Part shown: positions 9,001 through 12,000 of the stretch, piece by piece
Position numbering within the stretch: position 1 is the stretch's first letter
Layout: the number at the start of each line of letters is the position of its first letter
Origin: a plasmid
NCBI RefSeq assembly: GCF_054482595.1
Contig: NZ_JBTHVH010000004.1
Reading direction: 5' to 3' (one strand)
DNA: 64,000 nt
Made by a program: the position numbers

Positions 9001-12000
9001 TTTAGCATTTCACCTTACGGAGACGGGTACCGCTTATCAGTCTCGCCTGAAAATCGTCACAATGGTACCCAAAGCTTTGACGGCTGGTTCCCACGTTTTT
9101 TTTCCGAACCACAGTATGCCAAATCATCTTTAACTAAATTTCTCGGTGAGTCCTTAGTATGGGAAGAAGATTCAAGTAATGCTCTATGAGATTACTTATT
9201 ATAAATTTTTCTATTAATCTCCATGGAGTGATATATGAATTTGGCCTATTTTTTATTTTTGTCTATAACTGTTATGCTTACGAGCTTTATTATTAAATCA
9301 CTTGTCGTATTGGTAAAGTTCAAATTACTTCGTGATGAACGTCTCGAATATACCAGCAATAAAAATATTGATGAGATGTACGATTTAATGAATGCGAAGG
9401 AAGAAATCCTCATAAGGCATCATAAGCAGATGTTGGCATTGCATCTTTCACTATTAATATTCGTTCTATTTATTGCTTACATTTACTAAAAATAATTTTA
9501 TTCAACATTTCAACAAAGGGTTTTCAATGGAAAGCTTCGAAACTGAACAAATGATTCAATATGCTTTCTACATAAATATCGTAATAACGACTGGTTTGGC
9601 ATGGTTTTGCTTGCGGTCAGGATTGCATTACAATTTTTTCAGAAAAGCAGAGAGTGCCAGAACAAAAGGGCTGAGTAGTACCTCTACTGAACACGGTCCA
9701 GCAATAGTGAGACTAAAGAAGCTACAAGCATTAGTAGATTTTATTAGTAACTGTGCTTTTCTAATCCTTTCAATTGGCACAGCTTATATTTTGTATGTTT
9801 GGAGCCACAGTTAACTCATACGAGGTAACTTCGGCAGGTAACAACTTCTAATGCAGGACTTTAATAACTCTAAGGGATTCTACATGAAAAAAGACGATCT
9901 AATTACGCGTTGTAAATTACTTAAAGGCGAACGCGATGAGTCTATCTTTACCATATTAATTGGGATAGTAGTAAAGCTGGGGCTGGTAGGCCTGGCATTC
10001 TATCTGTTGCTTGGTTCCACGATTGATTGGTCAAGCTGGAAAACTTATGCCGCCATGTTGATCTTGGGAGCATTTCTCTAAAATCTTGAACCTTTTTTCA
10101 CTCATTACAAGCCATGACCTAGTGCGTAGATCATACGATCTTTAAACCTTATGTCATTGATTTATAAGTACATATAACAAAGATTATGTTAAATACTGTA
10201 TGTATGTACAGCATCAACAGTTGCCCCCCTCATATTGAGGTAATTGCTACATTCATACCACTATTCTTCTTATAGTATCGACATCCTGAATTATTGCACC
10301 CTACTGCTTTGTCTTTAGCTGTTCCGAATTAAAATTCATTGCTCAATTTGGATCACATGACGATCAGCGTATTCCTTTGCTTTATCAAAGTTAAGTTTTT
10401 AAAACATAAGATATGTAATGACAAATTCTCAATCTGATTTTCCTTTGAACGATCAAAATTTTCAGGCAGATTTGCTGAAAATCAAAAAGGTTTTCGCCGA
10501 CCTTATAACGCAGGCATCAGATGGTAAGATACCCATAAGGTCTTCTCATGTACACGGCTTACACCATTTCGAGGAGCTCTACATCCGGGCAAGAGCAGGC
10601 ATGTGTTCGGTCCTGGGATATCCGGTCATGGTTGTTTCAACTATCTCAGTTAAAGAGCCCGGCACAGGCATTTTTAGAGCGCTTCTTGCAGAATTGAAAT
10701 GTATTGCAGATGAACAAAATTACATTTTGAAAATTGAAAATGTACTGCCTCCCCTATTCCGCAAATACCTTATTCAAGAAGGTTTTGTTTTCCCAGGTGA
10801 ACCTTGGATGTGTGGTTCCGGCTATTGGTTTAAGAACCCACAAGTACTTCATGAAAATATTGAGTTATTATCTGTTTAAGTCGATCTAACAATTTCACTG
10901 GAGCTAACATGTCCCCGGAATTGGTATCAGACATTGCAAGAGTGGCGCATGAAAAGCTACTTTCAATTTTAACGGAGTGCGGCATAGAGAAGACGGCAGG
11001 CACTTGCCTTTTTGCAAGCTATCTTGTGTGTTATTTAGCAAAAACTAAAGGTCTAGATGCTGTTGTCCGTGGGGGTAACGGTGCAGATGATGGCGGTATA
11101 TTTATAGAGTGTGGTGGCTTTGGCCATTATTGGTGTGAGTTGAATTTCGAAGAAGTGCAATATTATATTGACATCACTTCCGAACAGTTTGGGTTTCATC
11201 CATACATAGTGAAACTCGCCAACGATATAACAGGATGGCCTCGATATATTCCTGGTGATCAGGAAACGGTCGATAGTCATTTAGAACAATTATTACGCGA
11301 CGGCTATACAGAATAGGCTGCGTATACCCTATCGCAGCCTTTCAGGCTCTTAACCCTTGTGACCTGTTAACGGAACCACTCAGGATGACGCTGCCGATCA
11401 ACTTTGATAACCTGCGAATTAAATTCAACGACATCCGCTGGAGTAAGCATTAATTCATCAGGATTTACAATAAATGGTCTTAAAACCACTTCGCCACCGT
11501 CTTCTTTTGCACCGTAGATATTAATAAGAAAGTGCAGTCGTTGATTTCCTTCAGCATTGCGTTGCCATTCTCTAAAAGTCAAAGTTTGTTTAATATAGTT
11601 TGTTAAAAGAAATGCGAATTCAGATTCTTCCGTTTGTGAGATACCGATTTTGTTAGACATTTTTTTTAGTATCTTTCCGAGCATGGACACACAGGCATCT
11701 AGACTTAACGATGTTGAAATTTTGGTCGTATTAAAATCCTCCTGCGAAAGTGAAATCATCCATGTATTATCTTTATGATAGTCGGTAATATAAATAAAAT
11801 GAGATGTAAAAGGCGTTGAGTGATTGAACTCTCCTAAGTTCCATCCATACTGACTCACTGTATTTGAGCTAAGTTCTTTGTCGGTAATGTTCATAATTCA
11901 TACCTTTCGATAAAGTCTGTAATGATAATTAGCTATCTCAAAGGACCAGAACAACTCTTGAAATAACCACACTCGAAGAATTTATCATATTGAACACCCC

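Follow-up and report, generated by a model that had tools for sequence, protein, structure and literature searches.

What do two small neighboring genes of a plasmid backbone encode, and do they work as a pair? The window analyzed here, a 64,000-nucleotide stretch of plasmid DNA (contig NZ_JBTHVH010000004.1 of RefSeq assembly GCF_054482595.1), carries two open reading frames (ORFs), here called genes A and B (Table 1), in a segment that is backbone of plasmids of incompatibility group HI2 (IncHI2). An earlier note on this DNA had tentatively proposed that they encode a GNAT-like acyltransferase and a papain-type thiol enzyme which together could form a toxin/antitoxin or effector/immunity pair. 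Our analysis assigns A to the GNAT fold and B to the transglutaminase-like thiol enzymes. An obligate A-B pair is ruled out because the two genes are often apart, or A is broken where B is intact. We lean somewhat toward the view that A and B are separate accessory enzymes of the IncHI2 backbone, a minimal GNAT and a transglutaminase-like enzyme, which are neighbors here and probably co-transcribed. Both are real genes, since their homologues keep the characteristic motifs and the AlphaFold2 (AF2) models are of high confidence.

Folds and predicted active sites of A and B

The GNAT fold of A is established. A search of Pfam, NCBIfam and PADLOC with A returned no match even at an E-value of 1, and its sole PHROGs match is to phrog_22660 (E 0.003), a family of unknown function. 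HMMER profile searching, run exhaustively over 1.84 billion representative proteins, found only 52 clusters for the A family, which is therefore very small. In an alignment of 31 members, Y55, R57, G84, F86, L118 and F123 are near-invariant and E107 is invariant, and the shared pattern '...vlvIS.I.v..pG.G.F..LL..L...a......l.VENVL...FR.FL.r.GF' corresponds at the sequence level to β4, motif A, α3, β5 and α4 of GNATs. E107 precedes an Asn in β5, and the GF turn is retained across very divergent members. Acetyltransf_1 is weakly matched by six of the 31 when each is scanned singly (best E 5.4e-5), and further members match Acetyltransf_7, _10, _9 and _8. Of the 14 PDB matches of the A profile, 10 are acetyltransferases, and every one of the strongest is among these (best E 0.005); small alignments of A and B gave chance matches only in the same database.

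Structure comparison of the high-confidence AF2 model recognized the GNAT core β2-β3-β4-α3-β5-α4-β6. The peptide that the earlier note had picked out as resembling an acetyl-CoA-binding loop, EPGTGIFRALLAEL, is indeed found at residues 80-93 of A and falls on the β4-α3 loop: E80-PGTGIF lies between the strand 70-78 and the helix 85-100, the site of the coenzyme A (CoA) pyrophosphate loop in GNATs. Tested against motif A (Q/R-x-x-G-x-G/A), the loop K79-E-P-G82-T-G84-I-F86 is correctly placed but not canonical, reading P-G-T-G-I-F where R-G-K-G-I-G is typical and keeping the nearly invariant central glycine, G84. Cofactor binding and catalysis by A are inferred: most likely it would transfer an acyl group from acetyl- or acyl-CoA to an amine on a cellular or defense protein and so serve the mobile element, by analogy with AcrVA5, a small acetyltransferase of phages.

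At the level of fold and active site, B is a member of the superfamily of transglutaminase-like thiol enzymes, in which it forms a distinct family. The window protein itself reached no Pfam, NCBIfam, PADLOC or PHROGs model. A profile search yielded 155 clusters, some of them named 'transglutaminase-like domain-containing protein' in UniRef and one carrying a precomputed Tox-PLDMTX match. Across 41 diverse members C33, G55, G56, G72, H73, W75, D88, Q93, F94, Y113 and G116 are invariant, with the signature T.GTC..AS ... RGG[DN]G..DGG ... GHYW.E ... DITADQFG ... PRYIPG, and weak Pfam matches occur to Transglut_core3 (nine members), Transglut_core (eight) and Tox-PLDMTX (five), with best E-values of 0.0014 to 0.023. 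Profile searches had been named in the earlier note as a check on both assignments: the window proteins match no curated model, whereas some members of each family weakly match GNAT or transglutaminase models.

The peptides AGTCLFAS (B 30-37) and GFGHYWC (B 70-76), in which a papain-type Cys/His dyad had been suspected, are both present, and the AF2 model (predicted local distance difference test score 94.3) bears the suspicion out, with the Cys at a helix N-terminus and the His on a β-strand. The invariant Asp88, which had been missed, completes a triad, and the modeled placement of the three residues on helix and strands appears as the hallmark layout of the transglutaminase-like fold. B is structurally similar to known transglutaminase-like and papain-like members of Pfam clan Peptidase_CA, with listed figures of 10.2 for Atu2299, 8.3 for Streptococcus pyogenes TglA, 7.6 for LapG, 7.5 for arylamine N-acyltransferase, 7.3 for SseI, 6.9 for factor XIII, 6.4 and 6.2 for transglutaminases 3 and 2, 5.7-6.2 for protein glutaminases, 6.0 for SpvD and 5.2 for the PMT C3 domain. 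It has no signal peptide. The ratio of non-synonymous to synonymous substitution rates between two IncHI2 lineages is ~0.3, a value that is only indicative with 9 synonymous and 10 non-synonymous changes. Acting in the cytoplasm, B would use Cys33 of the Cys33-His73-Asp88 triad to attack an amide bond of a protein or peptide through a thioester intermediate; the bond would be a peptide bond, an isopeptide bond or a Gln side chain, and B would most likely act as protease, isopeptidase or deamidase.

Environmental elements of up to ~350 kb (compared genome loci carry L numbers here: L034:5001-6170, also L035 and L036) have an R2K_3/R2K_2 ATP-grasp gene 22 bp after the B homologue. For the R2K-type ATP-grasp family, a function in attaching peptide tags during conflicts of phage and host has been predicted. 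This single context is no more than a hint at a role of B in the processing of peptide or protein modifications.

Table 1. Locations of the features discussed, in window coordinates unless a compared locus is given.
Feature	Location	Strand	Description
Gene A	10418-10879	+	153 aa, ATG start; minimal GNAT-fold protein; WP_000185304.1; from ORF listing
Gene B	10909-11316	+	135 aa, ATG start; minimal transglutaminase-like Cys-His-Asp protein; WP_000074418.1; from ORF listing
Region 5' of A	10082-10417		Intergenic, 336 bp, 33% GC; preceding + strand ORF ends at 10081
A-B spacer	10880-10908	+	29 bp, without terminator
EPGTGIFRALLAEL	10655-10696	+	A residues 80-93; β4-α3 loop and start of helix α3; place of motif A in GNATs
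Cys33 codon of B	11005-11007	+	Predicted nucleophile; N-terminus of helix 33-46; invariant in 41 homologues
His73 codon of B	11125-11127	+	Start of β-strand 73-80; invariant
Asp88 codon of B	11170-11172	+	End of next β-strand 83-88; invariant; third triad residue
Hairpin	11311-11343		GC-rich, GGCUGCG...CGCAGCC then UUUC; ΔG -17.3 kcal/mol, z -2.7; between convergent B and D; probable terminator
Gene D	11367-11894	-	175 aa, no family match; convergent with B
Tn3-family transposase ORF	12521-14341	-	606 aa
Family C member	L002:6660-7070
Family C member	L003:4866-5321
Family C member	L006:5511-6020
Family C member	L007:6425-6850
Family C member	L015:3367-3780

Linkage of A and B across plasmids and phages

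The two genes lie on the same strand behind an AT-rich region with exactly the spacing that had been described, and in IncHI2 they are likely to be co-transcribed. They look like the final two genes of a plus-strand transcript: GGAG at 10900-10903 stands 5 nt ahead of the B start codon, and transcription would end at the hairpin that follows B. Simple scans upstream of A and over this hairpin found no plus-strand σ70-like promoter and did not flag the terminator.

Across plasmids the two genes are distributed differently. Close homologues of A (at least 80%) occur in ~650 PLSDB records versus ~1050 for B, and ~400 IncHI2-like PLSDB plasmids have B at 90-95% identity (93%) without a close A. 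In four species-level genomes of this B-only variant (L008-L011), nucleotide homology to the window starts at ~10866, the 3' end of A, and the genes upstream of B are different ones, encoding a 223-aa protein and an 85-aa membrane protein. B was found in 2091 plasmids, mostly without A (a narrower B alignment returned six genome loci). B is without A in Providencia/Morganella-type elements (L004, L005, L012, L013), in Klebsiella (L025), in Pseudomonas megaplasmids (L026) and in the environmental elements mentioned above. Klebsiella IncHI1B plasmids have both genes, ~100 kb from each other; in pC127_NDM1 (LC521840) the position of A is 78 kb and that of B 247 kb.

IncHI1 plasmids provide cases of A broken beside an intact B. 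In pHCM1 of Salmonella Typhi CT18, the gene upstream of B (L028:6725-7198) encodes a 157-aa chimera in which an unrelated acidic N-terminus of ~90 aa is joined to ~60 final residues matching the A profile; strands β2-β4 and the loop are missing, and this epidemic IncHI1 lineage has thereby lost the GNAT core. B is likewise intact in further IncHI1 contexts where A is cut short (L030) or a tcu insertion has taken its place (L027, L032).

A is found in turn without B. The A family is confined to large plasmids and phages. It stands alone in L017 and L020 and in the Yersinia jumbo phage fHe-Yen9-02 (L018:4001-4444), Erwinia Alexandravirus (phage Alexandra, L021:3995-4435) and Y3-like phages. Mini-GNATs of the family occur in 51 phage records, mostly from ~260-kb Erwinia jumbo phages and amid hypothetical genes, and BFVD adds matches in Serratia phage phiMAM1 and Dickeya phage JA29. 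The phage collection contained no B homologue. Among the contexts examined, only the main IncHI2 lineage and L003 have intact copies of A and B side by side. The earlier note had suggested co-occurrence as a check: homologues are adjacent in these two settings, and much more often they are separate or A is broken beside an intact B.

To us the best reading, and on balance a slightly probable one, is that A and B are separately mobile and co-transcribed here by chance; co-transcription in IncHI2 would simply follow from their being neighbors among small, often-shuffled accessory genes. Several observations weigh against it. Where the genes are neighbors, in IncHI2 and L003, they share a strand with 29-33 bp between them, and a functional link may exist in those lineages. 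All six locus types with an A homologue at least ~40% identical have, directly beside A, either B or a member of another family, C (Table 1; none in the window). The orders are A then B in the window; C, A, B in L003; A then C in L002 and L007; and C then A, with overlapping reading frames, in L006 and L015/L016. C proteins, ~140 aa in length, have a Cys/His/Asp motif of their own and share the invariant pattern ECDG.T ... PH.W ... DYRLR.W ... PHG.F. The recurrent adjacency hints that A is partnered with a thiol enzyme. As to A itself, its motif A is non-canonical, the Q/R position being variable and the conserved F86 occupying the G/A position, and the usual catalytic Tyr of α4 is a Leu.

The adjacency would be explained if A and a small Cys-His-Asp protein formed a module of two enzymes, B and C being interchangeable as the partner, in which one enzyme adds a modification that the other removes or processes, or a toxin is joined to an enzymatic antidote as in DarT/DarG. 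The order of the genes flips while adjacency stays, and C has an invariant Cys...His-x-Trp...Asp pattern with B-like spacing (36 and 11 residues versus 40 and 15 in B). Against such a module stand the distant A homologues (34-37% identity) that are alone in L017, L020 and jumbo phages, and the far wider spread of both B and C, mostly without A: C is present in 2170 PLSDB plasmids, among them IncC plasmids and pK2044, and in three large viral contigs. Comparison of profiles reveals no C-B kinship (hhalign puts the post-Cys helix and the H-x-W-x-E strand in register at a probability of only 2-5%), C has one Pfam match (E 0.26) and none in the PDB, and related MOBH plasmids could have inherited much of the A-C adjacency as synteny. 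We regard the module, the main alternative, as doubtful, though worth some weight. A more specific proposal, that A belongs to a new family of minimal GNATs of large conjugative plasmids and jumbo or virulent phages and acetylates a host immune or core protein in anti-defense or host takeover, as AcrVA5 does but with another target, and that B or C are its partners in a MOBH counter-defense or protein-modification module, is in our judgment decidedly unlikely. A further observation on C is its fusion to a P-loop domain in L023.

The non-canonical features of A might instead mean that it is a catalytically dead GNAT-like scaffold serving as a binding or regulatory protein. The near-invariant G84, the invariant E107 followed by Asn and the retained GF turn form the pattern expected of a working cofactor site, and the GNAT AcrVA5, which is no larger than A, is catalytically active; a dead scaffold is therefore unlikely. 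A classical toxin-antitoxin or addiction pair, with A as a TacT/AtaT-type GNAT toxin and B as antitoxin or with the roles exchanged, would suit two small adjacent genes and appears very unlikely. With B as the toxin it is contradicted by the hundreds of plasmids with B intact and A absent, chimeric or truncated. With A as the toxin, no DUF1778/RHH model was matched by B, C or the upstream ORFs, no toxin-antitoxin or defense model was matched, AtaT and TacT score no better against A than generic GNATs do, the catalytic Tyr position is a Leu, and A stands alone in phages and other loci. Most improbable is a B that is secreted or injected as a papain-like toxin (a deamidase of the Tox-PLDMTX/SseI/PMT type) with A as its immunity protein or modifier: B does resemble such toxins in fold, but it is a bare 135-aa domain without signal peptide, N-terminal delivery domain or trafficking domain, its closest structural matches are the non-toxins Atu2299, TglA and LapG, it is usually without A, and the surrounding backbone has no genes for a type VI secretion system, contact-dependent inhibition or Rhs proteins. 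Immunity genes normally lie directly downstream of the toxin gene, and the gene downstream of B is convergent. The earlier suggestion of a toxin/antitoxin or effector/immunity pair is probably wrong, given that A and B are mostly apart or A is broken and that no toxin-antitoxin, immunity or secretion family was matched.

The IncHI2 backbone around A and B

The stretch 9800-12500 is 100% identical to more than 600 IncHI2 plasmids and at least 99% identical in 650 records, 625 of which cover at least 80% of the query in one match; the host bacteria are E. coli, Salmonella, Enterobacter and related organisms. One of them, pSTM6-275, is typed IncHI2A with a MOBH relaxase and MPF_F, and its annotation lists both A and B as 'hypothetical protein'. 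Literature searches returned nothing on either gene. In other IncHI2 plasmids the stretch is broken by differing insertion sequences (IS903B, ISKox3, IS3, ISApl1, ISVsa5).

Around the two genes the backbone encodes DUF4942, DUF1173, a Dcm methyltransferase, a thermonuclease and several small membrane ORFs, with a pco/sil metal-resistance island upstream and the RepHI2 replicon farther along the window; no transfer genes lie near A-B in it. We did not adopt a leading-region anti-defense island, since the neighbors are pco/sil, Dcm, thermonuclease and RepHI2 and not tra genes or an origin of transfer (oriT); oriT was not mapped. The 'AT-rich islet' of the earlier note is overstated: the genes have 40% (A) and 43% (B) GC against 38% in the whole backbone stretch 7000-12450. 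The contrast arises because GC steps from ~38% to ~65% near 12450 (window 12450-14341); this step and the Tn3-family transposase show where a resistance region has been inserted into the IncHI2 backbone.

Gene D has homologues beside B in L007 (9842-10348), L009 (6151-6576) and L013 (1473-2057), and the D-B association may be at least as conserved as A-B; we treat D as context, and it is not shown to form a unit with A or B. Small plus-strand ORFs with hydrophobic segments (135, 84, 113 and 76 aa) at 8782-10081 precede A-B, and RefSeq records annotate only some of them. L002 shares this 1.2-kb stretch at 99% identity, yet its A homologue reaches only 50%; the region is therefore a mosaic. Farther upstream, a thermonuclease-family gene (7281-7835) is followed by a ~300-aa ORF without family match (together 7281-8734); the longest call for the latter, 7754-8734, overlaps the thermonuclease gene, and the RefSeq start is later.

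IncHI2 plasmids are clinically important as major vehicles of resistance to multiple drugs, colistin and metals, and a large part of their backbone still has no annotation beyond 'hypothetical'. Two such genes, neither covered by Pfam or NCBIfam, now have fold-level assignments. Sharing of the A family only between large plasmids and phages is the distribution expected of genes in conflicts between mobile elements and hosts, and A and B are therefore reasonable candidates for anti-defense or establishment screens; a role in conflict between plasmid and host would fit this pattern. No new mechanism is shown, and the idea of an enzyme pair is weakened. That A, with or without thiol-enzyme neighbors, is a new anti-defense or protein-modification module strikes us as quite unlikely.

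Relation to known systems

A is similar in shape to AcrVA5 (PDB 6iuf), a small mobile-element GNAT that inactivates Cas12a, without detectable sequence kinship; AcrVA5 is not among the PDB matches of the A profile at E up to 10. A carries an additional helix at its N-terminus and a GSGYW motif at its C-terminus, and its target would have to differ as well. Cas12a is rare in Enterobacteriaceae. With the GNAT superfamily at large (Acetyltransf_1/7/10), A shares the fold, the G-x-G loop at β4-α3 and the β5-α4 segment 'VENV...F..FL...GF', whereas it scores below all Pfam and NCBIfam thresholds, its N-terminal arm is shortened and its motif A deviates from the canonical form. The type II toxins TacT, AtaT and KacT have in common with A the GNAT fold and plasmid location; A is smaller, lacks the catalytic Tyr and the DUF1778/RHH partner, and is structurally no closer to them than to generic GNATs.

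The nearest known relatives of B are the transglutaminase-like enzymes Atu2299 (2hly), TglA (9crn), LapG/BTLCP (4fgo) and the lasso-peptide B proteins (Transglut_core3), from which it is distinguished by a sequence identity of 7-15%, a length of only 135 aa and its own invariant RGG[DN]GxxDGG loop and PRYIPG motif. LapG is periplasmic, unlike B with its lack of a signal peptide. Atu2299 has been mentioned in a study of a lasso-peptide gene cluster; we rejected a cluster of this kind, or one for other ribosomally synthesized and post-translationally modified peptides, at the present locus, where no cyclase or precursor gene lies near B. Compared with Tox-PLDMTX, the PMT C3 domain, SseI and SpvD, B is without a delivery domain, a secretion context and an adjacent downstream immunity gene. 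A and B are thus best described as new families of known kinds, and the pair as such not as a new system.

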